DNA of 64,000 nt from Patescibacteria group bacterium (GTDB taxonomy: Bacteria > Patescibacteriota > Patescibacteriia > UBA1558 > GWA2-36-10). Shown here in pieces: positions 5,285-25,550 of the stretch (position 1 is its first letter; each line of letters opens with the position of its first letter). The DNA lies in assembly GCA_041662585.1 (NCBI GenBank), contig JBAZSG010000004.1, forward strand, positions 18,173 through 82,172, in the 5' to 3' direction. A model generated the notes under the pieces. The model ran no database searches, was not told where the DNA came from, and worked only from the letters and a program-made list of their open reading frames with translations. A program made the position numbers and the translations under genes.

Positions 5285-5371
5285 GGAGAGTTGGCAGAGT
5301 GGTCTATTGCGGCGGTTTTAAAAACCGAAGGCCCTTTTTAGGGCTCAAGGGTTCGAATCCCTTACTCTCCG
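5285..5371 (+). tRNA. tRNA-Leu(TAA), type II with long variable arm
   Basis: Acceptor GGAGAGT/ACTCTCC, D-stem GCA/TGC, anticodon loop TTTAAAA (anticodon TAA), variable arm GGCCC...GGGCT, T-arm AAGGG-TTCGAAT-CCCTT; 87 nt, CCA not encoded. Confidence 0.85.
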
Positions 5372-5377
5372 AATGCC

Positions 5378-6235: not shown

Positions 6236-6271
6236 CTTGATTTTTTAGCTAGAAAATGGGAAAATGTAGCT

Positions 6272-7057
6272 ATGATTAAACCATATTATGTTAAGCCAAA
6301 GTTCAGATTATATCATGCCAACGCGCTTGATTTTTTAGCCAATGTAAAACCAAATTCAGTAGATATGATTTTTGCTGATCCCCCATATAATTTATCAAAC
6401 GGAGGCTTCACTGTGCATGCTGGAAAAATGACGTCTGTAAACAAAGGAGATTGGGATAAAAGTAAAGGATTTGAAGGGGATTATGATTTTCATCATAAAT
6501 GGCTCGAAGCTTGTAAGAGAGTCTTAAAACCAAACGGTACACTTTGGGTAAGTGGAACTTATCATTCTATATATCAGTGTGGACACGCTTTACAGTCTTT
6601 GGGCTATCACATATTAAATGATATAAGCTGGTTCAAACCAAACGCTTCACCAAATTTAAGCTGTCGTTTTTTCACGGCTAGTCACGAAACTTTAATTTGG
6701 GCTAGGAAAGATAAAAAGGGCAAACACACCTTTAATTATAAAGAAATGAAAGGTGGAAATTGGCATGAACAGGATTTGATTAAAAAACCTGATAAACAAA
6801 TGAGGTCTGTTTGGGGCATTATGACGCCTAGAAATGGAGAAAAAAAATTTGGTAAGCATCCTACTCAGAAGCCATTAGATTTATTAAATAGGATAGTACT
6901 AGCCAGTACCAATAAAGGGGATTTAATTTTAGATCCATTTGCTGGTAGTTCTACAACAGGTATATCTGCTTATGCATTAGGTAGAAAGTTTATTGGTATT
7001 GATATGGATAAGAAGTTTTTAGATTTATCTATTAAGAGGTTTGAAGATATAAAATAA
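6272..7057 (+). CDS. Beta-class N6-adenine (or N4-cytosine) DNA methyltransferase, DpnA/HinfI-like
   Basis: Motif IV DMIFADPPYN precedes motif I LDPFAGSSTTG (beta-class order); 261 aa; immediately upstream of a restriction endonuclease gene. Confidence 0.8.
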   Translation: MIKPYYVKPKFRLYHANALDFLANVKPNSVDMIFADPPYNLSNGGFTVHAGKMTSVNKGDWDKSKGFEGDYDFHHKWLEACKRVLKPNGTLWVSGTYHSIYQCGHALQSLGYHILNDISWFKPNASPNLSCRFFTASHETLIWARKDKKGKHTFNYKEMKGGNWHEQDLIKKPDKQMRSVWGIMTPRNGEKKFGKHPTQKPLDLLNRIVLASTNKGDLILDPFAGSSTTGISAYALGRKFIGIDMDKKFLDLSIKRFEDIK

Positions 7058-7061
7058 TAAT

Positions 7062-7943
7062 ATGGAAAAAGATTTTGATAAATTAATAAATACTTTTCAG
7101 GAATCAATTTTTACTTGGGGTTATTTTACTGATTTTGAAAAGGTTAATAAAAATATTAGCAAAATAGAAAGAAAATTAAATTTACTTAATTCTTTAATTG
7201 GCAAAGACAATATTGAAAATGAGTTTATAGATTTAATTAAGGAATATCCAGAGGTAAAAGAAGTACTGCCAATTTTAATTGCAGTTAGAAAAGACAAGTT
7301 AAAAGAATTGTCTATTATTTCTGATATTATTAATTTAGATCATGATAAAAAATATGATATTTTTTATGAAGGCTTAAACGAAGAAAATGCAAAAGAATTA
7401 AAAATATTTTTTAATGAAAGTGGACTAAAAGACATTTTTAAAAATAAGAATATAAAAAATGTGGTTGATTATGTTTTTGGTATAGAAGTAGGAATGGATA
7501 CTAACGCTAGAAAAAACAGAACAGGAGATTTAATGGAAGATTTAGTAGAAAAATTTTTAGAGATATTTTGTAAAGATAAAAATTTTGTTTTTATTGAGCA
7601 AGCTACTAAGGTTAAAATTAAAAAAGCGTTTAATTATGATTTAGAAATTGATAAGAATAATAGAAGATTTGATTTTGCTTTATTTAATAAAGAAGAAAAA
7701 AAGCTATATTTAATGGAAGTTAATTATTATGGAGGAGGAGGTTCTAAATTAAAAGCAACTGCTGGTGAATATCAAAAATTAAATGATTTTTTAAAAAATC
7801 AAAATATAACATTTATTTGGGTTACAGACGGCAAAGGCTGGTTAACATCAAGAAATTCTTTAAAAGAGACTTTTAAGCATAATGATTATGTGATTAATTT
7901 GGAAATGCTTAAAAATGGAAGCTTAAAAACTATAGTAAAGTAA
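7062..7943 (+). CDS. Type II restriction endonuclease, DpnII/MboI family (predicted GATC specificity)
   Basis: 293 aa; blocks DYVFGIEVGMDTNARKNRTGDLMEDLV and EVNYYGGGGSKLKATA resemble what I recall of DpnII-family conserved regions; gene is 4 nt downstream of the DPPY methyltransferase. Specificity is inference. Confidence 0.6.
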   Translation: MEKDFDKLINTFQESIFTWGYFTDFEKVNKNISKIERKLNLLNSLIGKDNIENEFIDLIKEYPEVKEVLPILIAVRKDKLKELSIISDIINLDHDKKYDIFYEGLNEENAKELKIFFNESGLKDIFKNKNIKNVVDYVFGIEVGMDTNARKNRTGDLMEDLVEKFLEIFCKDKNFVFIEQATKVKIKKAFNYDLEIDKNNRRFDFALFNKEEKKLYLMEVNYYGGGGSKLKATAGEYQKLNDFLKNQNITFIWVTDGKGWLTSRNSLKETFKHNDYVINLEMLKNGSLKTIVK

Positions 7944-7947
7944 TAAT

Positions 7948-9591
7948 ATGGAAAAATTACTTAGTAAAGAAATAGTTAGTTTTCTAATAAATAAAGAAAT
8001 AGATATTGCTAAAAAAATTCGTAAAGACAATAGAGTTTCTAAGAGTTCGAACGAAGCTTATGCCTTTATAATATCAGTATTAAGAAAAACAATTTCTGAG
8101 TCTATAACAGAAAGTAAGTTAAAAGAAATTATATTTGATGGTAAGGATGAATGTGGTTTTGATGTTATTAATATAACACCAAGAAGGATAGAGATTTATG
8201 ATTTTAAAGATACTAATTCATCATTTTCTGAACATGAAGTCTATCCGTTTTTAGAAAAAATATTAAATTTTATATTTAAAGAAGAGACACTTCCTAGTAA
8301 GATGTCTTTTTTAGTAAAAAATAGAATTAAACAAATCATAAAAATAATAGATTCTAAAAAAATAAAAGTGAGAATATATTTTGTCAGAAATGGTTTTAAT
8401 AATCCAGAAGATTGGCTTATAGCTGGCGCTAATAAAAAAATTAAGAAAGAAAATATAGAAATAAAGTATATTAATCAAAAGGATATAATTTCTGATGTTT
8501 ATGAAAATAATCAAGTGCAGGATTTAGAATTTAATTTTAATGTTGATAAGAATAATTTAGAAGATTATTTCTTATATAAACATAGTAAAATTTTAATAAC
8601 AAGAGTCAATATAAAATATTTATTAAAAGGGTTAGTTAAGGAGTCTAATTTAAAAAATTATAATTTATACCATGATAATGTGAGAGGATTTTTAGGTAAA
8701 AAAGAACCTTCCAAGGGGATGCTAGTTACAATCAAAGATTATAAAAAAGATTTTCACCTTTTTCATAACGGAATAACTTTAGCTTGTCAAAAAATTAAAA
8801 ATGTTAGAGTGCTGGGGGGCAGTTTTGCTGTAACTAATCCACAAGTTTTAAATGGTTGTCAAACTTTAGAAACTTTGTATGAAAAATATTTAGATAATCT
8901 AGATGATAAATTATTAGAGGAGGCTAGTATATTGTGTCGTTTTTTTGTATTAGATTCTAAAAAAGCATTAAAAGTATGTCAATCTTCTAATACTCAAAAT
9001 AAAATTGATTCGTGGGAATTAAGGTCTAATGATAAGGAGCAAAAATTAATTGAGTATTATTTAAATAATACTTTAAAACAAAACTTTGAGTATAAAAGAA
9101 AAAGCGGAAAAAGCAAAAGTGGTAATGTATCTTTACCAGAGTTAGGCCAATGGTTGTATGCAGCAATTTTTGAAAAACCAGCTGAAGCCAAGAATAAGAA
9201 AACAGAAATTTTTCAAATAGATATTGATAAATCAATTTATGAACAAATATATCAAACATCAAAAGTAAAACCAGTAGATTTGATTAGGATTTGTGAAATA
9301 GGAGTTTTTTTGAAAAAGGCTAAAAAAGAGAAAGAGGTTATTAAGAGAACGGAGATCAAGGGTCTAGATAAGGAGACAGAGTTATCTTTAATTCGTAGTG
9401 CAGATTTTCATATACTTTCATCTTTTTACTATACAAAAAATAAATTGAATGACGAAAATTTACAAGCTTTAGTTAATAAAATATATAAGGTAGTTAAGAA
9501 AATTCAAAAAGAAAAAGAAGGTGACTATGATATAAAGAGAATTTTTACTCAAGATTTAACAACCTGGAGTAAAATAAAGAAAATTTTATAA
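7948..9591 (+). CDS. AIPR-family abortive-infection protein (phage resistance)
   Basis: 547 aa; central FHNGITLACQ...VTNPQVLNGCQTLETL block matches the AIPR family as I recall it; located directly after the R-M pair. Confidence 0.55.
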   Translation: MEKLLSKEIVSFLINKEIDIAKKIRKDNRVSKSSNEAYAFIISVLRKTISESITESKLKEIIFDGKDECGFDVINITPRRIEIYDFKDTNSSFSEHEVYPFLEKILNFIFKEETLPSKMSFLVKNRIKQIIKIIDSKKIKVRIYFVRNGFNNPEDWLIAGANKKIKKENIEIKYINQKDIISDVYENNQVQDLEFNFNVDKNNLEDYFLYKHSKILITRVNIKYLLKGLVKESNLKNYNLYHDNVRGFLGKKEPSKGMLVTIKDYKKDFHLFHNGITLACQKIKNVRVLGGSFAVTNPQVLNGCQTLETLYEKYLDNLDDKLLEEASILCRFFVLDSKKALKVCQSSNTQNKIDSWELRSNDKEQKLIEYYLNNTLKQNFEYKRKSGKSKSGNVSLPELGQWLYAAIFEKPAEAKNKKTEIFQIDIDKSIYEQIYQTSKVKPVDLIRICEIGVFLKKAKKEKEVIKRTEIKGLDKETELSLIRSADFHILSSFYYTKNKLNDENLQALVNKIYKVVKKIQKEKEGDYDIKRIFTQDLTTWSKIKKIL

Positions 9592-9619
9592 AATAAAGCA
9601 CTGAAATCAAACCAAGCTT

Positions 9620-9678
9620 AAATCAAAAAACTAAGTAATGTATTAACCCCCGCGAAAGCGGGGGTTTTTAAAAAGACA
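9620..9678 (+). repeat. 57-bp direct repeat, copy 1 (contains a Rho-independent terminator hairpin)
   Basis: aaatcaaaaaactaagTaatgtattaAcccccgcgaaagcgggggttttTaaaaagaca; near-identical to 10337..10393. Confidence 0.8.
9647..9670 (+). terminator. Rho-independent terminator (CCCCCGC-GAAA-GCGGGGG + T5) after the AIPR gene
   Basis: 7-bp GC stem, GNRA tetraloop, T-run, seen directly. Confidence 0.8.
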
Positions 9679-9770
9679 AGGTGAATCGCGAAGCGAGGGA
9701 GGGTGGCCTGGGCCATGTAAATAAATAAGGATTTTTGATATAATGGATATATAAAATTTAAATTCAATTT

Positions 9771-10325
9771 ATGAAAAAAGTACAGCAAATAAAAAATTTA
9801 ATTAAAAATGAATGTGCCAAAGGGCCAATAGATGATTGGTTTTACTCAACATACTTATTGGGTGTAGAAAAATTTGCCAAATGGCTACTAGCTAGACTAC
9901 CAAAAGCAAACAAAGAAGTAGTCATGCTAGGAGTTTGGCTTCATGATTTACAGAGGATAAAAGGCATCAAAGGCAATCATCAAGAAGTGGGCGCTAAGGA
10001 AGCCGAAAAAGTAATGATAAAATTTGCTTATGATAATAAAACAATTAATCAAGTAAAAAATATAATCCTTAGTCATTCTTGTAGTAGTAAAAAGCCAAAT
10101 ACTTTGGAAGGAAAGATTTTGGCTAGTGCCGATGCCATGTCTCATTATCATAATGATTTTTTCTTACAAATTGCTGTAACTGGTCAAAGAAATTTAGAAG
10201 AATATAAAAAATGGGTATTAGAAAAATTAAATAGAAATTATAATGTAAAAATTTGTTTTCCTTTTGCCAAAAAATCTATAAAGGCAAGGCATGATTTATT
10301 TAAAAAGGTTTTTACCATGAAGTAG
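9771..10325 (+). CDS. Hypothetical protein, weak HD-phosphohydrolase-like motifs
   Basis: 184 aa; WLHDLQR (HD dyad), LSHSC, SADAMSHY present but no upstream motif-I His found; bracketed by the 57-bp direct repeats. Confidence 0.3.
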   Translation: MKKVQQIKNLIKNECAKGPIDDWFYSTYLLGVEKFAKWLLARLPKANKEVVMLGVWLHDLQRIKGIKGNHQEVGAKEAEKVMIKFAYDNKTINQVKNIILSHSCSSKKPNTLEGKILASADAMSHYHNDFFLQIAVTGQRNLEEYKKWVLEKLNRNYNVKICFPFAKKSIKARHDLFKKVFTMK

Positions 10326-10336
10326 TAAATAGATTT

Positions 10337-10393
10337 AAATCAAAAAACTAAGCAATGTATTACCCCCGCGAAAGCGGGGGTTTTAAAAAAGAC
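10337..10393 (+). repeat. 57-bp direct repeat, copy 2 (with terminator hairpin)
   Basis: aaatcaaaaaactaagCaatgtattacccccgcgaaagcgggggttttaaaaaagaca; followed by a second hairpin cacccga...tcgggtg (10393..10414). Confidence 0.8.
10363..10384 (+). terminator. Rho-independent terminator (second copy of the CCCCCGC-GAAA-GCGGGGG hairpin)
   Basis: Same stem-loop plus T-run. Confidence 0.75.
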
Positions 10394-10429: not shown

Positions 10430-10927
10430 ATGGTTTTTTGGTATAATAACTCTATGGAAAATCAAAATAAACCCTACAATCCAGCCAATGATTCAATAAA
10501 ACAACTTTGGACATACGATAAACGTCTAGATAGATATTTAGTAATTTTACAGACAGTCTTTACGCTGACTTTTTCATACAGGGCTCATATTTGGGGTTTA
10601 TTTGTGTTTATAGCTTTTGTATGTTTTTTCTTAGTTCCTCTTATCTACTTCAGTAAATTTGCTAAGGGGTGGTTCTTAAACAAAAAACTTTATGAGCTTG
10701 TAAGAGAACAAAAAATACCAGCCTGGATTCCAAGAAGGCGTATAAGAACTTGGGTTATCTGGCTTATAATTGGAAATCCAGTTACATGGATGTTTTTTGC
10801 AGCTACGGTTGCTACAGCTTCGCAGGCATTACCAATCTTTGTGTCATTAATTTTAGCTATACCTTGGTATTTACTTGAACGTTTGCATAAGAAAGAAGAG
10901 CCTTATCTTGCACCTTATATAAAATAA
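10430..10927 (+). CDS. Hypothetical membrane protein
   Basis: Hydrophobic helices (LFVFIAFVCFFLVPLIYF, VIWLIIGNPVTWMFFAATVA). The track ORF begins at 10355 inside the repeat/terminator, so the start was moved to the in-frame ATG at 10430. Confidence 0.45.
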   Translation: MVFWYNNSMENQNKPYNPANDSIKQLWTYDKRLDRYLVILQTVFTLTFSYRAHIWGLFVFIAFVCFFLVPLIYFSKFAKGWFLNKKLYELVREQKIPAWIPRRRIRTWVIWLIIGNPVTWMFFAATVATASQALPIFVSLILAIPWYLLERLHKKEEPYLAPYIK

Positions 10928-10943
10928 ACTTAAAAATAAAATT

Positions 10944-11417
10944 ATGAAAGTAAAACCAATAAAACTATCAGCAGCTATACTAATGTCTTTAGCCGCTGGA
11001 GCTATAGGCTCAGCCTTTACTTTTACCGGCATAGATTCTTGGTATCAATATCTCAACAAACCAAGCTTCAATCCACCTTCTTGGATATTTGGTCCAGTCT
11101 GGACCACACTATATATTTTGATGGGTATAGCTTTGTATTTGATTTGGCAAGAAGGACTTAAAAAAGCCTTTGTTAAAAACTCTTTTATATTGTTTATAGT
11201 CAATCTAGTTTTAAATTCTCTCTGGTCTATTACTTTCTTTGGTTTACAAAATCCAGCTTTGGCATTTTTGGTGATTGTCTTGCTCTGGATTACTATCTTG
11301 GTACTTATCATTCGTTTCTATAGGATAAACAAACTAGCATCTTATCTACTGATACCATATCTATTATGGGTTAGTTTTGCTAGTGTGTTAAATTTTAGTA
11401 TTTGGCAGTTGAATTAA
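10944..11417 (+). CDS. tspO: TspO/MBR family tryptophan-rich membrane protein, paralog 1
   Basis: 157 aa; five TM helices, Trp-rich, FNPPSWIFGPVWTTLYILMGIALYLIW signature. Confidence 0.8.
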   Translation: MKVKPIKLSAAILMSLAAGAIGSAFTFTGIDSWYQYLNKPSFNPPSWIFGPVWTTLYILMGIALYLIWQEGLKKAFVKNSFILFIVNLVLNSLWSITFFGLQNPALAFLVIVLLWITILVLIIRFYRINKLASYLLIPYLLWVSFASVLNFSIWQLN

Positions 11418-11452
11418 TAATTATACTAATAATCATAGATAAAATGCAGCAA

Positions 11453-11606
11453 TAAAATAGCCTAAAGTATAGGGTTTTTATGTATTTTTATTAAAAATGC
11501 AGCAATTCGCTTGAAAAAATGACGCAATGAAATAGCTTAAAATATGGGGTTTTTATATATTTTTATTAAAAATGACGCAATTCGCTTGAAAAAATGACGC
11601 AATGAT
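11453..11606 (+). repeat. Two tandem ~77-bp direct repeats upstream of the Fic-family gene (possible operator or promoter array)
   Basis: Unit aaatagcYtaaaRtatRgggtttttatRtatttttattaaaaatgMMgcaattcgcttgaaaaaatgacgcaatg present twice at ~90% identity. Contains five copies of an AATGNNGCAAT-like motif (aatgcagcaat / aatgacgcaat). Confidence 0.8.
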
Positions 11607-11620
11607 GATAAAGTATACTT

Positions 11621-12658
11621 ATGAATAAAAGACAGAAACAAATTATAGAATTTGCTAGGAAAAATGATTCTTTTCAAAATAAAGATTTAGTTATTTTTTT
11701 TGACGATAAATATTCTAGAGAAACAATAACTAGAGATTTATCTTTTTTGTGTAAGCAGAATTTTTTGCGTAAAAGCGGTGCTGGAGCGTTTGTAACTTAT
11801 TCTTTGTCTGAAGTTTATGGAATTTTAGAGAAGGTTAATATCAAAAAATATTTTGATATTCCATACTTAAAAAGAGAAGTAAGGGAAAGTTTTAATTTTG
11901 AAATACTAGATGTCTTGGAGAAGGATATTTTTACAGCTGAGGAAAAAACAAAACTAGAAAATTTACAAAAAGATTTTATTGGCAATTTCTCAAAATATGA
12001 TAGTCAAACTCTTATTAACAAAGAATTTGAAAGAATAATGATTGAATTTTCTTGGAAATCTTCAGTAATTGAAGGCAACACTTATTCACTTTTAGGTACT
12101 GAAGCTTTGATTAAGAATAATGTGATAGGAGAAGGCAAGACAGATAAAGAAACTCAAATGATTTTGAATCATAAGGATGCTTTTAATGAAGCTATTCAGA
12201 ATAAAGAAAGATTTAAAAAATTACATGTTTCTGATATTGAATATATTCATTCAGTTTTAACTAAAAAACTCGGAATTTCTAAAAATATAAGAAACGGAGC
12301 AGTTGGAGTCACTGGTACAAAGTATAAGCCTCTAGATAATGAGTATCAGATCAAAGAAGTGATGAAAAAAATGGTTGATCTCATTAATAAAAAAGAATCT
12401 TTTTTTGAAAAAGCTTTTTTGGTATTAATTCTTATCTCTTATATACAAATTTTTGAAGATGGAAACAAAAGAACCTCTCGTATGATTTCTAATGCTATTT
12501 TATTGGCACATAACTCAATACCACTCTCTTATAGAATCGTAGATGTTGAGGAATATAAAAAAGCTGTTATATTATTTTATGAAATAAATAACGTTTCTTA
12601 TTTTAAACAGATATTTATTAATCAGTTTGAAGATGCCGTTAATAATTATTTTAAATAG
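11621..12658 (+). CDS. Fic/Doc-family protein (class II-like, N-terminal SxxxEG inhibitory motif) with a degenerate catalytic motif
   Basis: 345 aa; SSVIEGNT (S-x-x-x-E-G) upstream of IQIFEDGNKRTSR, which aligns to HPFx(D/E)GNGRxxR with His replaced by Gln and the second Gly by Lys. Confidence 0.65.
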   Translation: MNKRQKQIIEFARKNDSFQNKDLVIFFDDKYSRETITRDLSFLCKQNFLRKSGAGAFVTYSLSEVYGILEKVNIKKYFDIPYLKREVRESFNFEILDVLEKDIFTAEEKTKLENLQKDFIGNFSKYDSQTLINKEFERIMIEFSWKSSVIEGNTYSLLGTEALIKNNVIGEGKTDKETQMILNHKDAFNEAIQNKERFKKLHVSDIEYIHSVLTKKLGISKNIRNGAVGVTGTKYKPLDNEYQIKEVMKKMVDLINKKESFFEKAFLVLILISYIQIFEDGNKRTSRMISNAILLAHNSIPLSYRIVDVEEYKKAVILFYEINNVSYFKQIFINQFEDAVNNYFK

Positions 12659-12712
12659 TGTCTATAGATAAAGTATAGACAAGATCATATCTTTTAATTA
12701 GTGATAACTTAA

Positions 12713-12739
12713 AAACTACTCTAGTGAGTAGTTTTTTGA
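12713..12739 (+). terminator. Rho-independent terminator hairpin X (AAAACTACTC-tagt-GAGTAGTTTT + T-run), copy 1
   Basis: Perfect 10-bp stem; a near-identical copy lies at 17114..17140. Confidence 0.75.
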
Positions 12740-12751
12740 TATAATAACCAT

Positions 12752-13197
12752 ATGAACAAACTATGTCCTATAACAAAACCATATAAGACAGCTAAGCTAA
12801 AGGTATCTAAATTACACACTCTTTATTATGAGCAAGTAGGTAATCCACAAGGAGTGCCTCTGGTATATTTACTATGAGTAAATGGGAATTAGATTGGTTG
12901 CATAATGATAAGGCTAAGATGTTTTATCCTGATGCTTGGCAAGTATATTCTGCTGGTCTAAAGAAAAATCAAACAAGTAATTTGATAGAGGTATTTTATA
13001 AGAAAGTATTTTCAAAAGTTATAATCCAAGGACGTTATGATATGATTTGTCCACCTATTACTGCTTGGAAGCTTCATGAGACTTGGACAAAGGCAGATTT
13101 TGAGATGATAGAAGCTTCAGGGCATCATTCTAGTGAAAAGAATAATATAGATGTTATTATAAAATATACTAATAAGATGTTGAGATATAAAATTTAA
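12752..13197 (+). pseudogene. pip: Proline iminopeptidase (pip) remnant: N-terminal 41 codons and C-terminal ~107 codons joined with a frameshift; ~190 internal codons deleted
   Basis: 12752..12877 encodes MNKLCPITKPYKTAKLKVSKLHTLYYEQVGNPQGVPLVYLL*, the start of the Pip N-terminal signature, but it stops before the GGPG motif. 12874..13197 (other frame) encodes IQGRYDMICPPITAWKLHETWTKADFEMIEASGHHS, a Pip C-terminal signature. Confidence 0.6.
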
Positions 13198-13206
13198 TTT
13201 AAAACT

Positions 13207-16200
13207 ATGTACAAAACTCAAACATTAACTAAAACATCAGTTTCTATTAAAGAAAAAATTGCTATTGGTGTTGGACTATTAGCCATTAGCTTTATTGGTT
13301 TCAACTTTATTTTTTCATTATTTGGTGAAGTATTAGAGCCAGTAAAAAAAATAGTAATATCAAAGCCACAAACTATAGTTAACAATAATGTATATAGTAT
13401 ATATCCAGTTTTTGAAAAAAAGTATGTAGAAGATGAAATTATAATTAAAATTGCAGATAAGGTAAGTAAAGAAACTATTGAGTCTGTGATAATGACAGAT
13501 CTTACAAACTTATCTCCAAAACAAATAAATTTTAGTTTGAGCGAAACAGATAAAGAGTCTGTATTGCTAAAACCTGTATTTTCTCATTTTAAAAATAAAG
13601 AATTAGGATTTAAATATGATCTTGATAAATTTTATTATATAAAAAATTTAAGCACGGATGAAGATCAATTGATAAAGGATTTACAAAAAACAAATAACTA
13701 TGAATATGTTGGACGTTTAGTAGAACCTCAAACTTTTTTTACGCCAAATGATACATTTTATAACAAGCAATGGTTTCTTAATAATACTGGACAAAGTGAT
13801 TTAATAAACTATGTACCGCCAGCAATATCAGGTTTTGATATAAATGCTCCAGAAGCTTGGGATACTACACAAGGTTCCAGTGATATTATTATTGCTTTTA
13901 ATGAATTGACACAACCTAATCATCCGGATTTAGTAAATAATATGTGGGTTAATGATGATGCTCCTGGTGATAAAAATAGTGATGGTTGTCCTGGAGTATG
14001 TGGAATTGATGATGATGGTGATGGCCTGATTGATGAAGATAGATTAGATAATGAACCAGGGGATATGGGGTATTTAAATGATTTAGTCAATGACGATGAT
14101 GAAAATGGATATCCAGACGATATTCATGGTTGGAATTTTACGACAAACTCAGGAGATGTTTATAGTGAGTATGCTCAACACGGCATGGGTGTTCATGGTT
14201 TGTTAGCAGCGCAAGGAAACAATTCATTAGGAGTAAGTGGAGTATGTCCACAGTGTAAAGTTATGTCGATTGGTTCTGAATGGGGAGCTGAATCAATAAT
14301 AGCAGCACCTGTTTACGCAGTTGATAATGGTGCTAGGATTTTAAGTATGAGCTATTTAACAACAGATGATCCAGCTTTGCATGCAGCAGTGCAATACGCA
14401 TATGAGGCTGGATTATTAATGTTTGGTGCCTCTGGTAACTCTAATATCTCAACGGAAGCTCTTTATCCAACTTTTTATTCAGAAGTATTAGCGATTACCG
14501 CTGCTGATCAGTTTGGTTGGAAAGCTCCTTGGAGTGTTTTTGGTCCAAAAACAGAACTTATGGCTCCTGGAAGTGAAATATTATCAACCACAGTTAATGA
14601 TCAGTATGCATATTTTGGCGGTACCTCTGGCGCAACACCCGTTGTGGCTGGTATCGCAGGATTAGTTTTTTCGGCAAATCCTTTACTGACAGCACATGAT
14701 GTAAAAAATATATTACGTACTACAGCACAGCCATATAAATCTTGGTTTTATGCAGGTGTAGGTATGGTTGACACAGAAGCGGCAGTACAACTTGCGCAAT
14801 ATTCTAATACACCAAGAGTAGAGATAAATGATCCACTACAAAGCACAGTAATAGCAAATAGCGACACCTCTTATAATATAAGAGGTAGTGCCAACGGAGA
14901 TAAATTTGTATCGTATGATCTAGTATATGGTAGAGGAATGTTTCCTTCGGATTGGACGTATATTGTGCAATCTAGTAATAATCAAGTAGCGGACAATGTA
15001 TTAGGAATATTTGATGTTAGCAGTGTAGGGGCTGGGTATTATACGGTTGAATTACGAGTTACTTCATCAGACGGAATAGAATATACAGATAAAATAGTTT
15101 TGTATAAACAACATGCATTTGATCAATCTTGGCCAATAGAACTTAGCGCAGGAGGGCTTAAAGAATCATTAGGTATATTTGATATTTTAGATGATAACAA
15201 TCCAGAGTTTTTGGTTGCAGATTATGATTCAAATAACATTGAAATATATTCTATTAATGGTTCTCTTGTAACTAGTACAGATATAGATAGTGCAGTAATT
15301 AATAGTCCAACTTTTGTAGTACAAGGGGATGTAACTTGTGATGGTAATAAAGACACAATAGTAGTGACAAAAAAAAATTGGCCATCTATTCCTTTAATAT
15401 ATATTTATGATAAAAGTGGAAATAAAATTAGAGAATTTGAAGTACCTGGCATAACAATACTCAGTTATAATTTTTCAAACGTCGCATTAGGTGATATTAA
15501 TGGTGATGGCTGTGATGAAATAGTTATTAAAACAGCAGAATCAATTTTAGTTGTGGATGGTAATGGCATAAATCTTGGTTCTAAAGATTATTCATTATTA
15601 CAAATGGGATCCCCAGCAATATTTGATATTAATAATGATGGCACTAATGAAATATTATTTTCCTCAAATGAAGGAATTGATTGTTTAACATATTCAAATT
15701 CAGCTTTATCAATGTGTCCTGGACAATGGCCTTATTATATAGATGGTTATCCGGGAGTAGCTACAATAGTGGTTGATTTGGATTCCGATAATGTTTTTGA
15801 AATTGTTAATTTTGCCTTTTCTATACAAATATTAGAATTAAATGGAACGCTTATTAACGATATTCAAATACCAAGACTTATACCTACTATGGGAAACAAT
15901 GAAACATTTATCACTGGATTTGCAATTGGCGATATTAATAATGATCAGCAATATGAAATAATTTTTACTCGAGATTCAAGATTTGGAAATGTAATGAATG
16001 GCGAGGAGCAAAATATATATGCCTATACATTACAAGGAGCTCTTATTGATGGGTGGCCACAAAAATCTGAAGCATCTGGTAATAGTAAGGTTGCTATTCG
16101 AATTGATGATTTAGATGGAGACGGTATTAATGATATTTTATATGAGCAAAATAATCGTATTTTTGCTTTTCATGGTGATGGAAGTGTTGTGAATAGCTTT

Positions 16201-16623
16201 CCTCGCCAAATGTCAAATTTTGAAAATAGTCAGGAAATAGATATTTATTTATGGGATGATAAGCAAGGCTCCGAGTTATTTCTTTATTCTTTTGTAAGAT
16301 TTGGGGACTTATCTAGGATTACTAAAAATACATTTTCAAGTAATGATTCTATAGGTACATGGCAATTACCTTTTGCGAATAGGCAATCTTCAATGACTCT
16401 ACCAAGTATGTATGTTCAGCCAATGTGTTCAGATGGTACAGCCTATAATAAGTGCAATGATAGTGCTCAATATTGTGATGAAGGTCGGCTTATATCACGT
16501 TGTGATTTATGTAATAAAGGTTGTTTAGATGGTTATGATTGTATATCAGGCCAATGTTGTCAGAAAATAGAAGGTCAATATGAGTGTGATATAGCCACAG
16601 AGCAGTTTGATTTAAAATATTAA
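13207..16623 (+). CDS. Secreted, membrane-anchored subtilisin-like (S8) serine protease with a Ca-binding Asp-rich insert, FG-GAP/VCBS beta-propeller repeats and a Cys-rich C-terminus
   Basis: 1138 aa; N-terminal TM/signal; Asp (DINAPEAWD), His (HGMGVHGL) and Ser (GGTSGATPVVAG) catalytic motifs; DDDGDGLIDEDRLDNEPGD insert; repeated GDINGDGxDEI, FDINNDGTNEILF, DDLDGDGINDILY; C-terminal CSDGTAYNKCNDSAQYCDEGRLISRCDLCNKGC. Confidence 0.8.
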   Translation: MYKTQTLTKTSVSIKEKIAIGVGLLAISFIGFNFIFSLFGEVLEPVKKIVISKPQTIVNNNVYSIYPVFEKKYVEDEIIIKIADKVSKETIESVIMTDLTNLSPKQINFSLSETDKESVLLKPVFSHFKNKELGFKYDLDKFYYIKNLSTDEDQLIKDLQKTNNYEYVGRLVEPQTFFTPNDTFYNKQWFLNNTGQSDLINYVPPAISGFDINAPEAWDTTQGSSDIIIAFNELTQPNHPDLVNNMWVNDDAPGDKNSDGCPGVCGIDDDGDGLIDEDRLDNEPGDMGYLNDLVNDDDENGYPDDIHGWNFTTNSGDVYSEYAQHGMGVHGLLAAQGNNSLGVSGVCPQCKVMSIGSEWGAESIIAAPVYAVDNGARILSMSYLTTDDPALHAAVQYAYEAGLLMFGASGNSNISTEALYPTFYSEVLAITAADQFGWKAPWSVFGPKTELMAPGSEILSTTVNDQYAYFGGTSGATPVVAGIAGLVFSANPLLTAHDVKNILRTTAQPYKSWFYAGVGMVDTEAAVQLAQYSNTPRVEINDPLQSTVIANSDTSYNIRGSANGDKFVSYDLVYGRGMFPSDWTYIVQSSNNQVADNVLGIFDVSSVGAGYYTVELRVTSSDGIEYTDKIVLYKQHAFDQSWPIELSAGGLKESLGIFDILDDNNPEFLVADYDSNNIEIYSINGSLVTSTDIDSAVINSPTFVVQGDVTCDGNKDTIVVTKKNWPSIPLIYIYDKSGNKIREFEVPGITILSYNFSNVALGDINGDGCDEIVIKTAESILVVDGNGINLGSKDYSLLQMGSPAIFDINNDGTNEILFSSNEGIDCLTYSNSALSMCPGQWPYYIDGYPGVATIVVDLDSDNVFEIVNFAFSIQILELNGTLINDIQIPRLIPTMGNNETFITGFAIGDINNDQQYEIIFTRDSRFGNVMNGEEQNIYAYTLQGALIDGWPQKSEASGNSKVAIRIDDLDGDGINDILYEQNNRIFAFHGDGSVVNSFPRQMSNFENSQEIDIYLWDDKQGSELFLYSFVRFGDLSRITKNTFSSNDSIGTWQLPFANRQSSMTLPSMYVQPMCSDGTAYNKCNDSAQYCDEGRLISRCDLCNKGCLDGYDCISGQCCQKIEGQYECDIATEQFDLKY

Positions 16624-16632
16624 ATTAAAAAT

Positions 16633-17100
16633 ATGAAAATAATAAAACTATCAGCAGCTATACTAATGTCTCTAGCCGCTGGAGCTATAGGTTCAGCCTT
16701 TACTTTTACAGGAATAGATTCTTGGTATCAATATCTCAACAAACCAAGCTTCAATCCACCTTCTTGGATATTTGGTCCAGTCTGGACCACACTATATATT
16801 TTGATGGGTATAGCTTTGTATTTGATTTGGCAAGAAGGACTTAAAAAAGCCTTTGTCAAAAACTCTTTTATATTGTTTGTAGTCAATCTAGTCTTAAATT
16901 CTCTCTGGTCTATTGCTTTCTTTGGTTTACAAAATCCAGCTTTGGCATTTTTGGTGATTGTCTTACTATGGGTTAGTATATTAGTACTTATCATTCGTTT
17001 CTATAGGATAAATAAACTAGCTTCTTATCTACTAATACCATATCTACTATGGGTTAGTTTTGCTAGTGTTTTAAACTTTAGTATTTGGCAGTTGAATTAA
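16633..17100 (+). CDS. tspO: TspO/MBR family protein, paralog 2 (~96% nucleotide identity to 10944..11417)
   Basis: 155 aa, near-identical protein; the DNA repeat runs from ~16643 to the stop. Confidence 0.8.
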   Translation: MKIIKLSAAILMSLAAGAIGSAFTFTGIDSWYQYLNKPSFNPPSWIFGPVWTTLYILMGIALYLIWQEGLKKAFVKNSFILFVVNLVLNSLWSIAFFGLQNPALAFLVIVLLWVSILVLIIRFYRINKLASYLLIPYLLWVSFASVLNFSIWQLN

Positions 17101-17113
17101 AGGTATAGAAGAT

Positions 17114-17140
17114 AAAAACTACTCTAGCGAGTAGTTTTTT
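17114..17140 (+). terminator. Terminator hairpin X, copy 2 (AAAACTACTC-tagc-GAGTAGTTTT + T-run)
   Basis: Same stem-loop as 12713..12739. Confidence 0.75.
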
Positions 17141-17217
17141 GGTATAAAAATAGTCGGATGACAGGGACAAGAATAAACTTGTATATCATCCGACTATTGG
17201 ATTGTAGGCCAAGTTGT

Positions 17218-17637
17218 CTAGCCTTCGGACTGCTTGACGGCGTCGAACTCGATCTCGACCAGAGCATCGAAGGGGAGCCAGGAGACACCGAAGGCCTTGC
17301 GCCTGGGCCTCACGACGGAGGTGTTGACTCCGAAGGAGACCTTCCAGCAATCGTTGAGGCAGGCGTAGTCCCGGGGGTAGTTGTCGCTGACGATCATGAC
17401 CGTCGCCGAGTGGACGTCGTCCGGCGTCAGACCGACAGCGATGAGCTGGTCGGCCATCTTCTGCAGTACCTCGACGACCTGCTCCTGGAAGTTGCCGTTG
17501 GACTTCAGCCGGCCGTTCTCGACGATGCCTATGGTGCCGGAGAAGTGGAAGTGGTTACCGACCTGCACGCAGGTTGAGTAGGGTTGACCCGGAGCTTCCA
17601 TATTGGCTATGGCAGCTGGCTTGGTTTTTTGGGGCAT
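17218..17637 (-). CDS. ridA: RidA/YjgF/TdcF-family enamine/imine deaminase, compositionally foreign (~64% GC)
   Basis: 139 aa from the ATG at 17637, preceded by AGGAGGT; YjgF signature (PAAIANMEAPGQPYSTCVQVGNHFHFSGTIG...VVRPRRKAFGVSWLPFDALVEIEFDA); GC-rich sequence matches the ORF extent (~17195..17640). The track's longer start at 17724 is unlikely. Confidence 0.8.
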   Translation of the reverse strand: MPQKTKPAAIANMEAPGQPYSTCVQVGNHFHFSGTIGIVENGRLKSNGNFQEQVVEVLQKMADQLIAVGLTPDDVHSATVMIVSDNYPRDYACLNDCWKVSFGVNTSVVRPRRKAFGVSWLPFDALVEIEFDAVKQSEG

Positions 17638-17742
17638 GAAATACCTCCTATAGTGTACAGGTTTTGTCTGCTGGGCAGACGTTGGTTGATGGATAAAGTT
17701 ATAATAAATAACTATTTTTGTCAATAATTGTTTTAAATAAAA

Positions 17743-17871
17743 ATGTACAATTTTGTAATTTTAAATATTTTATAAAATGTACAATTTTAAAGTAAAAATA
17801 TCAAAAAATAAGGTATTTTTAGCATAAAAATGTACAATATTATATTAAAAACTTGTCAAAAAATGTACAAT
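17743..17871 (+). promoter_or_regulatory. Four direct repeats of (A)AAATGTACAAT (palindromic TGTACA core) at 17743, 17777, 17830 and 17863, upstream of a perfect TATAAT -10 box (17887..17892) and the MerR-GHKL gene
   Basis: Motif copies seen directly, in two pairs spaced 33-34 bp; a likely operator array. Confidence 0.55.
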
Positions 17872-17908: not shown

Positions 17909-18643
17909 ATGCCATACAAATTTGATATAAATGAAACTGCTGATATTTTGGGAGTCAATCCTTATACTTTACGTAGATGGGATAATAAAAAAATACTTAA
18001 AGCTAATAGAGATAGCGAAAAAGGACATCGTTATTATTTTGAAGATGATATAGAAATTTTTTTATCTAATAATTATAAGTATCTTTTAAAAATTGCCAAT
18101 AAATGGTCTCTTTCAAAGGAATCTATAAAAATACCATCTAGGTTCTATTGTGAAGATGCTTTTGTATTTAAGTCTCGTTTATCTAGATTTGCAGAAACTT
18201 TAAAGAGAGATGGTGTTCTTGGAGATTCTTTTTCACTGGTCACTTCTGTTGTAGGTGAAATTGGCAATAATTCATTTGATCATAATATTGGTAATTGGCC
18301 AGACATACCTGGAATATTTTTTGGATATAGTCTAAAAGAGCGTAAAATTATTTTAGCTGATAGAGGAAGAGGTGTGCTCACTACATTACAAAAAATTAGG
18401 CCAGAATTAGCCAATGATAAAGATGCTTTAAAAATAGCATTTACAGAAGTAGTGACCGGTAGATATCCAGAGAATAGAGGTAATGGATTGAAGTATGTCA
18501 AAAAAATAGTACAGAATAATAATATGTTTTTATGGTTTCATTCAGGGCAAAATGCTATTGTGCTAAAAAGTAAATCATCAGATTTGATAAATATAGACCT
18601 AGAGAAATATATGAGGGGGTGTTTTGTTATATTAGAATATTAA
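17909..18643 (+). CDS. MerR-type HTH DNA-binding domain fused to a GHKL (RsbW-like) ATPase/kinase domain
   Basis: 244 aa; N-terminal TADILGVNPYTLRRWDNKKIL...GHRYY (MerR HTH); C-terminal N-box EIGNNSFDH, G1 box DRGRGV, G2 box GNGLKYV. Confidence 0.65.
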   Translation: MPYKFDINETADILGVNPYTLRRWDNKKILKANRDSEKGHRYYFEDDIEIFLSNNYKYLLKIANKWSLSKESIKIPSRFYCEDAFVFKSRLSRFAETLKRDGVLGDSFSLVTSVVGEIGNNSFDHNIGNWPDIPGIFFGYSLKERKIILADRGRGVLTTLQKIRPELANDKDALKIAFTEVVTGRYPENRGNGLKYVKKIVQNNNMFLWFHSGQNAIVLKSKSSDLINIDLEKYMRGCFVILEY

Positions 18644-21976: not shown

Positions 21977-22110
21977 AATAGCTATCTCCTTATTTTTTTG
22001 TTATGATATCTTATTTTCTGTAGCAAGCTTAGCATATTATTGGATTTATTAAAACGTTACTTTTTGTTGGTTTTTTGCTATACTTAGTATATAAAATTAA
22101 AATAAAAATT

Positions 22111-23457
22111 ATGATTAAAAACAACCAAGGATTTAGTGATGCAATTAGTATGACTATTGTCTGTGGTATATTGGGTGCTTTGTTTATTACGGGAGTTTTT
22201 GTGTGGAAAGAAACTGAGCTTTTTAGAGCCAATCAATTTATAAACAAAATTTTTAACATTGAATTAAAGGCTGATACAAAAGACGAAGCTAAAACAATAA
22301 TACTCAATGAAGGACAACATGATATTGTTTTGGATGCTACAGACCAGACTTATATTTTAGCTGATAGTAAAACAGAGCTAGTCTTAAAAAGAGTCCATAC
22401 CATATATGAATTGGGTGGTGAAAATGGTGCATACGGTCCCAATAATATATTTGAAGAAAAAGGTCTTCCTTATCTGAAGATAGATGATGCTTGGTTAGAA
22501 ATTTTTAATGATGCCGAAATTTATAGTAATGGTTATAATATTAAATTGAAAAATAATGGTTGTGCTATTTTAGAAAAATTTCAAGAGGACTATTCTTATA
22601 ATTATATTGATAGTTGCAATATCAGTGTTGATATTAAAAAAGACGAGGCTGATTATATTTTACCCAAAGCCACGGAACATACATTTTCTTTTGATACTCG
22701 TTATGATGGCTTTTTGATAAAAAACAATTATGACAATTTTGTAGCCATTAGAGAAACAGGTTTTTATGTGGGCAATATTGACAACAGCAAAAATCCGCCA
22801 GAGCCAACGAGTTTAAGAGCAGGACTGGATATAATCACCAATTTTGGAGTAAAAAATATAGAATTTGATTTATTTGATGAGAAAGTATTAAATCGTGTTG
22901 ATAGTATAATCATCGGGCCATTAAAAATAAGCTATTCAATCAAAGATGTCGGCAATAGCAATACGCATTGTTATACCGGCTCCTGTATAAATATTTTTGT
23001 CATTGAACTCAAGTCAGAAGTAATTGATGATAAATATTCAGAAGTCAAGATTATCTCTCCGGCTTCATTATTAGAAGAGCCAACAAATGAAGAGCTACTT
23101 TTAGAAGCCATAAAATCAAATGATAAACAGCTGTGTAATAATATATTAGATTTGGACAAAGAATTGTGTATAAATGTTTTTGAAGATAAATGTGATGTAT
23201 ATTCAGATATAAATTTGGAATCATGCGAGTATTTTAAAACCATTTTAGACAATAGTATTGTCATTGATAATACGACAGTCTGTTTGCCAGAACAAAGAAA
23301 TGCCGATGCTTGTGTGTTTATATATGATCCAGTCTGTGCTAGTGTCAATGTAGAATGTATTACTGCGCCTTGTCCACCAATCAAACAAACTTTTTCAAAT
23401 TCATGTGAGGCTTGTCGTAATAGTCGGGTGATTGATTATATAAAAGGTGAGTGCTAA
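22111..23457 (+). CDS. Secreted hypothetical protein with a C-terminal Kazal-like Cys-rich domain
   Basis: Signal/TM at N-terminus (MTIVCGILGALFITGVFVW); C-terminal DPVCASVNVECITAPCPPIKQTFSNSCEAC fits a Kazal-like disulfide pattern; start chosen at the internal ATG. Confidence 0.5.
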   Translation: MIKNNQGFSDAISMTIVCGILGALFITGVFVWKETELFRANQFINKIFNIELKADTKDEAKTIILNEGQHDIVLDATDQTYILADSKTELVLKRVHTIYELGGENGAYGPNNIFEEKGLPYLKIDDAWLEIFNDAEIYSNGYNIKLKNNGCAILEKFQEDYSYNYIDSCNISVDIKKDEADYILPKATEHTFSFDTRYDGFLIKNNYDNFVAIRETGFYVGNIDNSKNPPEPTSLRAGLDIITNFGVKNIEFDLFDEKVLNRVDSIIIGPLKISYSIKDVGNSNTHCYTGSCINIFVIELKSEVIDDKYSEVKIISPASLLEEPTNEELLLEAIKSNDKQLCNNILDLDKELCINVFEDKCDVYSDINLESCEYFKTILDNSIVIDNTTVCLPEQRNADACVFIYDPVCASVNVECITAPCPPIKQTFSNSCEACRNSRVIDYIKGEC

Positions 23458-24166: not shown

Positions 24167-24700
24167 GTGAATTCACATAATGAGGAAAATTTGAAAAGTC
24201 TTATATTGTTGAGCATAGAGGGCAGGGAAAGTTCTTTTCAACAATTATATGAACATTTGTCAGATCAATTGTTTAGATTTGTATTTGCTCGTTGTAGCAA
24301 CAGAGAAGATACGCTGGACTTATTACAAGATATATTTGTTGATTTGTGGAAAGCTTTGCCAAAATTTAAATATTCTACCGATGCTGAATTTTATAGTTTT
24401 GTCTTTACGATTACTCGTCGTAAGCTCAGTAAATATTATAGGTTTAAAAATAAGTCTGTAGTCTTTGACGAAAAATATATCAGAGAAAATTATGAAATAC
24501 AGCCAGAGGATTATTGGCTACTTGAAAAGATAATCCCGAGGCTCAAAGATAAATATCGTCAGGTTTTAGAATTACGCTATTTTAGTGATTTCACTTTTGC
24601 TCAAATTGCAAAATTTTTGAACATCAAAGAATCTACAGCCAAGGTACAGCATCATCGAGCTATCAAACAACTCAGCGATATAATCAAAAAATATGAATAG
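24167..24700 (+). CDS. ECF-type sigma-70 family RNA polymerase sigma factor
   Basis: Region 2 (LLQDIFVDLWKAL) and region 4 HTH (YRQVLELRYFSDFTFAQIAKFLNIKESTAKVQHHRAIKQL); GTG start in track. Confidence 0.75.
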   Translation: MNSHNEENLKSLILLSIEGRESSFQQLYEHLSDQLFRFVFARCSNREDTLDLLQDIFVDLWKALPKFKYSTDAEFYSFVFTITRRKLSKYYRFKNKSVVFDEKYIRENYEIQPEDYWLLEKIIPRLKDKYRQVLELRYFSDFTFAQIAKFLNIKESTAKVQHHRAIKQLSDIIKKYE

Positions 24701-25550
24701 TAATATAAACAATAAACTAGAAAAAATAAAAACTAAATCTTTGTCATCAACAGAAAAAGATACTCTGTGGCAAGGTATTAGTCATGATATAAATCAAGAA
24801 AATAATTTATCATTTTTTAGTTTGTTGTTTAGTAGAAAAGTGGTGTTCAATATAGCTATAGCTATATTGGTAATTTTTGGAGGATTTATCGCTACTGTCC
24901 AAGCAGCCGATAGAGCCAAACCAGGTGACAAATTGTACGCTCTAGATAGAGCAGTAGAAAATATACAAATTACTTTTGCTTCTCCAGCCAATAAAGACAA
25001 ACTCAAAATAAAATTTTCTCAGGAAAGAGCTAGTGAAATACAAGGTGTAATTAAAAAAAATATTGATGAAGATTTTGAATTTGAAAAAGACAAAAATAAA
25101 AATTCCAATGTCGGGAATAATGTCGGGAATATAGAAGAATCTAGTCATGATGCCTTAAAATATATAATTAAAGTAAGGAATGAATTGTTTGAAAAAAACA
25201 ATCAAATAGCTGTAGATGATTTGGATATTTTGCTAGAGAGTGTACAGGCTAGTCTAGCTACATTGCCAGACAATATGAAAGTAGATGTAGAAATAGAAGA
25301 AGAAAACAACAAAGCTGAATTTAGGATTAATTTTAAAGATGAAGATGGTCAATTTAAGATAAAATATAAATCAGCCGAAAATAATAAAAATAATCGTAAT
25401 ACTAATGATAAAGAAGAAGAAGATGAAGATGAAAATGAGGATATTGAATTGAAAAATCAAAAACTTGATAATATTAATAATGACGAAGAAGAAGATGAAG
25501 ATGAAAATGAGGATGATGACAAAGATGATAAAGAAGATGAAGACAGATAA
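24693..25550 (+). CDS. Single-pass membrane protein, putative anti-sigma factor, with a long acidic repeat tail
   Basis: Start overlaps the sigma factor stop (ATGAATAG); one TM (VVFNIAIAILVIFGGFIATV); tail with duplicated EEEDEDENED blocks and NVGNNVGN. Confidence 0.45.
   Translation: MNSNINNKLEKIKTKSLSSTEKDTLWQGISHDINQENNLSFFSLLFSRKVVFNIAIAILVIFGGFIATVQAADRAKPGDKLYALDRAVENIQITFASPANKDKLKIKFSQERASEIQGVIKKNIDEDFEFEKDKNKNSNVGNNVGNIEESSHDALKYIIKVRNELFEKNNQIAVDDLDILLESVQASLATLPDNMKVDVEIEEENNKAEFRINFKDEDGQFKIKYKSAENNKNNRNTNDKEEEDEDENEDIELKNQKLDNINNDEEEDEDENEDDDKDDKEDEDR

Follow-up and report, generated by a model that had tools for sequence, protein, structure and literature searches.

Two intact, directly repeated tspO genes, 5.7 kb apart, flank a mosaic segment in a recombination-prone island of a Patescibacteria genome

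Two tspO genes lie in direct orientation

We analysed a 64,000-nucleotide stretch of a Patescibacteria metagenome-assembled genome (MAG; GCA_041662585.1, contig JBAZSG010000004.1, positions 18,173 to 82,172), referred to here as the window, in which two genes coding for TspO/MBR-family proteins are located on the same strand with a start-to-start distance of 5,683 bp, as determined both from the open reading frame (ORF) listing and by repeat finding. The first, tspO-1 (10944..11417, + strand), codes for an intact 157-aa protein and begins 16 nt after the end of an upstream membrane-protein ORF (10454..10927), and the second, tspO-2 (16633..17100, + strand), codes for an intact 155-aa protein and starts 9 nt past the stop codon of a gene for a large S8-family protease. 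Both proteins match the Pfam TspO_MBR profile (PF03073) over positions 1-144 of 145 (E ~5e-52, 176 bits, cut-off 24), and score 122 bits with NCBIfam NF047825, which is under the equivalog cut-off of 180. They also match the solved TspO chains 8e7x (E=1e-23), 4uc1 (3e-22) and 4ryi (9e-15), and the tryptophans W33, W47, W53, W68, W94, W115 and W142 are invariant in 18 TspO relatives, in which Pro and Asn positions are also conserved. TspO-1 is 100% identical to NCBI MFA6307731.1 and TspO-2 is identical to MFA6307736.1, both of which are encoded on the same 153,225-bp contig.

The two genes differ at 20 of 459 coding nucleotides (95.6% identity in a pairwise alignment), and the initial annotation, which had described two paralogs of about 96% identity, was thus correct as to both their position and their similarity. 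The direct repeat extends from 10959 to 11420 (+ strand) with its partner at 16642..17103, and self-alignment of the region shows this pair to be the sole long repeat of the 64-kb window. Its limits are abrupt, with homology beginning about 15 nt into the coding sequence (that is, within the first ~5 codons) and stopping sharply at the stop codon. The first ~3 codons of tspO-2 are outside of the repeat, and the N-termini of the two proteins differ accordingly in sequence (MKVKPIKLS in TspO-1 and MKIIKLS in TspO-2). The annotation had further proposed that the repeats could mediate deletion or inversion of the intervening block; because they are in direct orientation, deletion or amplification of the 5,683-bp unit is possible and inversion is not.

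The copies are diverged, under purifying selection, and specific to this lineage

Sixteen of the 20 differences between tspO-1 and tspO-2 are synonymous, and the other four are conservative replacements (I/V, T/A, I/V and T/S). Overall divergence is 0.17 at synonymous sites (dS) and 0.011 at non-synonymous sites (dN), giving a dN/dS of 0.07 by the Nei-Gojobori method, and we conclude that both copies have been kept functional by purifying selection since they diverged. The single-nucleotide polymorphisms (SNPs) are not evenly distributed, and a central core of 143 nt (11031..11173, partner 16714..16856) has no differences at all, with flanks on either side of this sharply SNP-free segment having similar SNP densities and a dS of 0.22-0.23. 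A run of this length is unexpected for 20 SNPs in 459 nt (p ~0.01 by permutation, 0.007 at the codon level). These figures point to recent homogenisation of the core, whether through gene conversion or because it was where the crossover took place in the recombination event that made the arrangement.

In a homology search of 5.8e9 database proteins, the nearest relative of each TspO is the other copy (96% identity), and among about 8,000 scored homologues the next best reaches no more than 89%; the duplication event therefore belongs to this lineage. A scan of GTDB genomes identified relatives only at 58% identity or below, and a metagenome scan recovered neither the window's own contig nor the syntenic relative described below. 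Where related genomes with 77-89% protein identity could be compared (including loci L083-L093), every fetched contig has a single tspO. We considered polarising the SNPs against outgroups as a test of which copy is native and which foreign, and judged this to be uninformative. A survey of the available literature, directed at patescibacterial TspO and at paralogs of TspO, identified nothing relevant.

A second assembly has parts of both copies on one contig

In a second MAG assembly (GCA_041667165.1) there is a contig of 5,786 bp corresponding to window positions 11051..16836 at 100% identity, starting inside tspO-1 and ending inside tspO-2. This one molecule includes the 3' SNPs of copy 1, the intervening genes described below, the junction between the S8 protease gene and tspO-2, and the 5' SNPs of copy 2, which excludes the possibility that one gene was falsely doubled. 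Also in this assembly, a 213-kb contig extends from the 3' part of tspO-2 into ridA and on through MerR-like, DUF4325 and HI0933-like genes, in the same order as in the window. The second-assembly breaks are inside the 143-nt identical core, with 123 nt of the core at each contig end, and the 5,786-bp contig has identical 103-nt ends within the core. Ends with 123 nt of core presumably match what de Bruijn assembly with k=124 would produce at a repeat. The assembly graph admits two walks, one giving the tandem layout seen in the window, and the other a hybrid tspO together with a 5,683-bp circle. Concern that the pair is an assembly artefact is largely, although not fully, removed.

A hairpin and a promoter-like motif accompany each copy

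The initial annotation had reported that a terminator hairpin is duplicated along with the gene, and two copies of the sequence AAAAACTACTCTAG(Y)GAGTAGTTTTTT (which in its 26-27-nt form can also be written AAAAACTACTCTAG(Y)GAGTAGTTTTT(T)) are indeed present in the 64 kb, compared with an expectation of 0.00. One is at 17114-17140 as reported, and the other is at 12711-12737, the previously assigned position of 12713-12739 being off by 2 nt. The first hairpin (H1, A5-CTACTC / GAGTAG-T6) is fused to an extended -10 motif (TGATATAAT) ahead of a pip pseudogene, and together these occupy 12710..12747 on the + strand, as identified by repeat family, folding and motif scanning. The second (H2) and a vestigial extended -10-like sequence (TGGTATAAA) occupy 17113..17150 on the + strand, with no + strand gene following. 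H1 and H2 each have an 11-bp stem with three G-C pairs, a 4-nt loop, an A5 head and a T6 tail, with fold energies of -12.4 kcal/mol (z = -3.7) for H1 and -11.7 kcal/mol for H2, and they are 92% identical (3 of 38 nt differ; repeat family D4/D9). These structural features are those of bidirectional intrinsic terminators, and H1 and H2 probably act as such; a terminator consensus scan picked up one of the two. A search of 150 fetched loci for the hairpin located it solely in this organism's second assembly.

Immediately after the hairpin, the copies share a further ~12 nt (TTTTTTG[A/G]TATAA[T/A]), constituting the T-run and the extended -10 motif. Four instances of the fused motif TTTTTGNTATAAW are present in the window compared with 0.32 expected, at 9732, 10435, 12733 and 17136, all within an island spanning 9.7-17.2 kb. 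At both 10435 and 12733 an ATG is positioned 6 nt after the -10 motif, suggesting that transcripts from these two sites may be leaderless; at 9732 the distance is ~25 nt, and at 17136 there is no following gene on the + strand. The same motif is also found sporadically in other genomes, indicating that the tail of the repeat is generic and that the specific homology lies in the stem-loop. The promoter-like element at H1 precedes the pip pseudogene, the S8 protease gene and tspO-2, whereas that at H2 (TGGTATAAA) faces the 3' end and terminator of the convergent ridA gene and has nothing to drive. A promoter-like element with no target gene suggests that the duplicated unit was copied from an arrangement in which tspO, the hairpin and the promoter were followed by pip.

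To the right of H2, in unique flanking sequence, there is a separate strong hairpin with a U-run (17150..17199, - strand; fold of 17103-17215, z = -7.9), which is the likely ridA terminator. There is also a second duplicated terminator in the window, an CCCCCGCGAAAGCGGGGG hairpin with ~30 nt of upstream flank, at 9618-9673 and 10335-10390 (79% identical). The two copies bracket an HD-domain gene (9771..10325), and the pattern of a cassette between junction elements thus recurs within the island.

The segment between the copies is a mosaic

Profile searches agree with the earlier description of the DNA between the repeats as a mosaic in which a pip pseudogene and a giant S8 protease gene accompany a Fic gene; the last of these belongs to a mobile module. 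The prolyl aminopeptidase (pip) pseudogene (12752..13197, + strand; pip' below) consists of two pieces in two frames, one N-terminal (41 aa) and one C-terminal (107 aa), matching TIGR01249 only at positions 1-33 (E=1.5e-8) and 251-306 (E=1.2e-20). The central part is absent, and the missing portion, from after position 33 to about 250, is where the nucleophile serine is expected. The S8 gene (13207..16623, + strand) codes for a 1138-aa subtilase (PF00082, E=4e-37) with FG-GAP repeats and a Cys-rich C-terminus, as identified with FG-GAP_3 and NCBIfam profiles.

The Fic gene is at 11621..12658, and its product has both a HTH_DeoR (helix-turn-helix, HTH) domain and a Fic domain (PF02661, E=3e-12, 47.7 bits, cut-off 24). 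Canonical catalytic motifs are HxFx(D/E)GNGRxxR in Fic proteins and HxFxDANKR in Doc proteins. The corresponding residues here are Q-I-F-E-D-G-N-K-R-T-S-R, with a Gln at the position of the catalytic His that is invariant in 10 family members, and the motif for the HTH-Fic family is QxF(E/D)DGNKRTxR, with a Doc-like NKR. The protein therefore carries the signature of the Fic fold family and is probably not a canonical AMPylase. The PADLOC SoFic model is matched in part, with residues 120-299 aligning to model positions 36-217 of 361 (E=1.5e-16). There are thousands of HTH-Fic homologues, of which the top 120 are 75-100% identical and nearly all exactly 345 aa in length; they derive from many classes of Patescibacteria, with 75-87% identity across classes.

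Upstream of the Fic gene there is a tandem repeat (11438..11605, or 11441-11605 by Tandem Repeats Finder, + strand) containing five copies of a 13-mer, AAAATGMMGCAAT, spaced at 53, 22, 53 and 22 nt. The annotation had also placed tandem repeats here, between tspO-1 and Fic, and these are present in 2.2 units, with a period of 75 nt rather than 77 nt. The 13-mers overlap a -10-like TATACT a few nucleotides before the Fic ATG, and it is plausible that the array provides operators for the protein's own N-terminal HTH domain together with the Fic promoter.

Repeats and gene together form a module (11438..12670, + strand) that is recognisable by its nucleotide identity to unrelated loci. Window positions 11495..12666 are 82-85% identical to Fic loci in unrelated contexts (L134-L149), and the homology includes the upstream 13-mers, whose 22/53-nt spacing is conserved in these loci, and ends at 12657-12666, about 8-12 nt past the Fic stop codon; the window has one extra 75-nt unit relative to the homologous loci. 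One setting of the homologues is the inside of a type I restriction-modification (R-M) operon (hsdM-OLD-hsdS-...-Fic-hsdR), in which genes of this family are often located, and another is beside genes for reverse transcriptase (RT), PDDEXK and Y1-transposase proteins. Searches of plasmid and viral sequences with Fic and with the 5.68-kb unit gave no match.

The edges of the module, at ~11438/11495 and ~12670, are between the tspO-1 stop codon (11417) and H1 (12710). Because these edges lie within the gap between tspO-1 and the hairpin and the module is mobile, we consider it probable, in accord with the initial annotation, that the Fic module was inserted between tspO-1 and its terminator. The sequence that follows the module, TAAAGTATAGA, weakly resembles the spacer that follows tspO-2, TAAAGGTATAGA (p ~0.02-0.04, which is marginal). 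A different Fic gene (RhuM-Fic) occupies the interval between tspO and ridA/L-PSP in a related genome, such that the location is a recurrent landing site rather than a one-off, and has received a Fic-type gene at least twice.

The tspO genes are in an island of variable gene content

Upstream of tspO-1 are, in order, bipA (- strand), a 504-aa ORF, a tRNA-Leu gene, an ORF with RNase-H-like features, an N6/N4 methyltransferase with a DpnII-type endonuclease, an AIPR/AbiU protein, the HD protein, and the small membrane protein that precedes tspO-1. The part from tRNA-Leu to the AIPR/AbiU abortive-infection (Abi) protein (5285-9591) constitutes a defence island. Of the ORFs in the tRNA-Leu to ridA interval that were scanned with Pfam, none codes for an integrase or transposase.

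A syntenic relative with a TspO of 78% identity, a 149-kb contig of JGI 3300072015 known from its gene table alone, has bipA (- strand) followed by Fic, methyltransferases and GmrSD/HNH, and then tspO, RhuM-Fic and L-PSP (- strand). Downstream of these it has NUDIX, sigma-70, zf_Tbcl_2 and PIF1 genes, and zf_Tbcl_2 and sigma-70 also follow in the window. The differing gene content within a shared bipA...tspO/ridA frame shows that the interval is a hot spot of gene turnover and recombination in this clade.

Convergent with tspO-2 is a gene for RidA/L-PSP (17218..17640, - strand; PF01042), with the same junction in the second assembly; the L-PSP of the syntenic relative was not recovered as a homologue of the window RidA. 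The ridA region (17218-17743, - strand) is 58-64% GC in a genome of ~30% GC, with the step in GC content at the ends of the coding sequence. Only four homologues were found in the 5.8-billion-protein search, and an 85%-identical homologue in another low-GC contig is also 64% GC. The nucleotide identity to L150 2453-2974 is 85.6%, and is restricted to the coding sequence and a ~100-nt leader that has a conserved small hairpin (GTCTGC.CAGCAGAC) and AGGAGG. From its composition and boundaries, ridA resembles a mobile module the size of one gene that came from a high-GC source.

Between ridA and a MerR-like gene (17909..18643), which is followed by a DUF4325/STAS-like gene, there is a spacer of 10-16% GC containing four exact copies of AAAATGTACAAT (17740-17871). 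These are probably an operator array, and their core resembles the 13-mer of the Fic module (AAAATG...CAAT). Further downstream, the 3' end of ORF 24693..25550 contains a low-complexity acidic repeat rich in Asp, Glu and Asn (25380-25543).

Other relatives have rearrangements close to tspO. In L091 (530-1255), TspO is fused to a Cys-rich C-terminal domain of ~85 aa, which shares 71% identity with the C-terminal end of window ORF 22075..23457, suggesting that the fusion may have been generated by deletion. We tested whether a 107-aa ORF after tspO in L091 is a pip remnant, and rejected this; the same locus has a bAvd and reverse transcriptase pair (6464-7772) that resembles a diversity-generating retroelement. 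L090 (1010-1519) has a rearrangement scar, in which a fragment of the 3' end of the window DUF4325 gene (…LINTTNPSV(I/V)ATLEMLS) abuts a 5'-truncated tspO. In L089 (FLOH01001027.1; TspO 77% identical) a single tspO is positioned between 106-nt direct repeats (9902-10007 and 10472-10577, 84% identical), each with an inverted repeat, CCGGTTAGAAATT...AATTTCTAACGG, and unusually GC-rich (45-56%) minus-strand genes follow. The second repeat copy may be the orphaned 5' leader of a second gene that has been lost. An integron-like attC reading of the repeats at L089 and at the HD gene was rejected, because the order of the inverted-repeat cores is not that of attC and no integrase is present.

A proposed history and its alternatives

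The tspO duplication is real and lineage-specific, and the genes are an evolutionarily ordinary pair of paralogs in a recombination-prone island. As to how the pair arose, the explanation we favour, with some reservation, is a lineage-specific direct duplication of a unit of about 0.5 kb, comprising tspO, the spacer, the terminator hairpin and the extended -10 motif, at the ridA end of the island. We infer the order of events, the promoter and terminator functions, and the gene conversion, and propose the following. The ancestral order would have been tspO, hairpin (H), promoter (P), pip and S8, and duplication would have set a second copy of tspO-H-P after the S8 gene. If the left breakpoint fell within the first tspO codons, then tspO-2 would have acquired a new ATG and become two codons shorter, which explains its new and shorter N-terminus. 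Later, insertion of the HTH-Fic module would have split copy 1 from its hairpin, and pip would have decayed by internal deletion. At present there would be two transcription units, mem157-tspO-1 and pip'-S8-tspO-2, each supplying a near-identical TspO, with ongoing gene conversion between the copies as read from the 143-bp identical core; RecA-type recombination at the 460-bp direct repeats could loop out or amplify the 5,683-bp unit.

Several observations weigh against this history. The flank dS of ~0.23 is large for an in-situ duplicate with a still-decaying pseudogene between the copies, and import fits equally well. The syntenic relative has tspO beside L-PSP, suggesting that tspO-2 is in the older context, which is awkward for the proposed order of events. 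The promoter, terminator and operator roles are pattern-based only. Furthermore, the link between the 5' and 3' SNPs of each copy crosses the 143-nt identical tract, in which the contigs of the second assembly break, and the two assemblies, being 100% identical here, probably represent one population rather than independent organisms.

A possible, though less probable, alternative is that a segment from a sibling lineage diverged by ~6% (carrying tspO-H and pip-S8, and perhaps Fic) recombined at a resident tspO, either through a Campbell-type single crossover of a circularised fragment or by homology-facilitated illegitimate recombination. Two hybrid tspO copies would then flank the imported DNA and the 143-nt core would be the crossover zone, for which the similar SNP densities on either side of a sharp SNP-free core are suitable. 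Import would also account for the flank dS of ~0.23 with strong purifying selection, as for orthologues of separate lineages, and for the four amino-acid states in the 3' half of tspO-2 that match the syntenic relative (P0009); moreover, the island does take up foreign modules, as with Fic and the GC-rich ridA. However, no donor-like sequence was found: the best match other than the two copies is at most 89% identical, and neither the hairpin nor the S8-tspO adjacency was seen at any other locus. The circular intermediate is assumed without supporting evidence, and the divergence of the hairpins, which is about that of the gene (3 of 38 nt), is also expected of an old in-situ duplication.

It is unlikely that all or part of the population has instead one hybrid tspO (5' of copy 1 and 3' of copy 2) ahead of H2 and ridA, with the tspO-Fic-pip'-S8 segment as a free circle of 5,683 bp. 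The contig topology of the second assembly would fit a circle, with identical 103-nt ends of the 5,786-bp contig in the core and the neighbouring contig starting in the same core, and the segment carries iteron-like direct repeats. There is, however, no gene for replication, partition, mobilisation or integration in the segment by Pfam or NCBIfam, nor similarity to any plasmid or viral contig, and the 153-kb contig of the window's own assembly extends across the two copies. The protein database yielded no hybrid TspO of 157 aa, and the 123-nt core ends are presumably what a k=124 assembler would leave. An extension of this idea, that the tspO-bounded 5,683-bp unit is an excisable and re-integrating circular cassette that uses homologous recombination at tspO with no dedicated recombinase, we regard as distinctly unlikely. 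Were it true, accessory genes in Patescibacteria would be shuttled without a recombinase using a conserved membrane-protein gene as the attachment site, and the circle-compatible contig, the 106-nt repeats of L089 and the terminator repeats at the HD gene would be traces of one process.

A mis-joining of contigs from co-existing strains so as to double a single tspO falsely is highly improbable, even with a MAG as the source and an identical core longer than most k-mers, because the 5,786-bp contig of the other assembly joins copy-1 3' and copy-2 5' sequences with their SNPs and the S8-tspO-2 junction, no linear strain-variant solution of the graph lacks two tspO sequences, and substitutions of which 16 of 20 are synonymous are not error-like. 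We also considered an mRNA-mediated (retro) copy, as the repeat runs from about the start codon to the terminator, and rejected it: the homology passes the T-run into promoter-like sequence, and neither copy starts a transcript.

Significance and comparison with known systems

For curation, both TspO proteins of this MAG should be kept, and the layout described here lets repeat-induced contig breaks in sister assemblies be bridged. It also documents gene duplication, gene conversion and mobile-module insertion in the Patescibacteria, a lineage usually called streamlined. Perhaps worthier of follow-up are the His-less HTH-Fic family with its conserved operator-like repeats, and a ridA module of 60-65% GC in genomes of 30% GC.

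The TspO proteins resemble those of solved structure from Rhodobacter sphaeroides (4uc1) and Bacillus cereus (4ryi) in their full-length match and conserved Trp, Pro and Asn residues. The match to the Rhodobacter protein is clear yet distant (E ~1e-23), and the window locus has no visible photosynthesis or porphyrin context.

In defence islands, R-M, Abi and Fic/Doc genes turn over while the genes on either side are conserved, and the region between bipA and tspO/ridA is similar in having a type II R-M pair, AIPR/AbiU, HD and Fic genes, with other methylases, two Fic genes and GmrSD in the corresponding frame of the relative, and with Fic homologues being found in type I R-M operons. It differs in that the tspO duplication is not itself a defence function. 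There is a likeness also to Campbell-type and amplifiable units, in that the 5,683-bp unit is bounded by direct repeats and the contig topology of the second assembly is compatible with a circle, whereas the unit codes for no recombinase, and its repeats consist of a membrane-protein gene of housekeeping type instead of an insertion sequence or att site.

A further parallel is with duplicated tuf- and rrn-type paralogs, in which duplication under purifying selection with gene conversion between direct repeats is a general bacterial pattern. As in those, there are two intact same-strand copies with a low dN/dS and a homogenised tract between diverged flanks, and a potential for RecA-mediated deletion or amplification of the DNA between the copies. 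The tspO copies are unlike them in being just 460 bp in length, with a spacing of 5.7 kb in a small genome of the Patescibacteria, in having accessory and partly decayed rather than core DNA between them, and in that conversion is read from one 143-nt tract alone. The arrangement is thus a new instance in the Patescibacteria of processes of well-known kinds, and involves no new mechanism.

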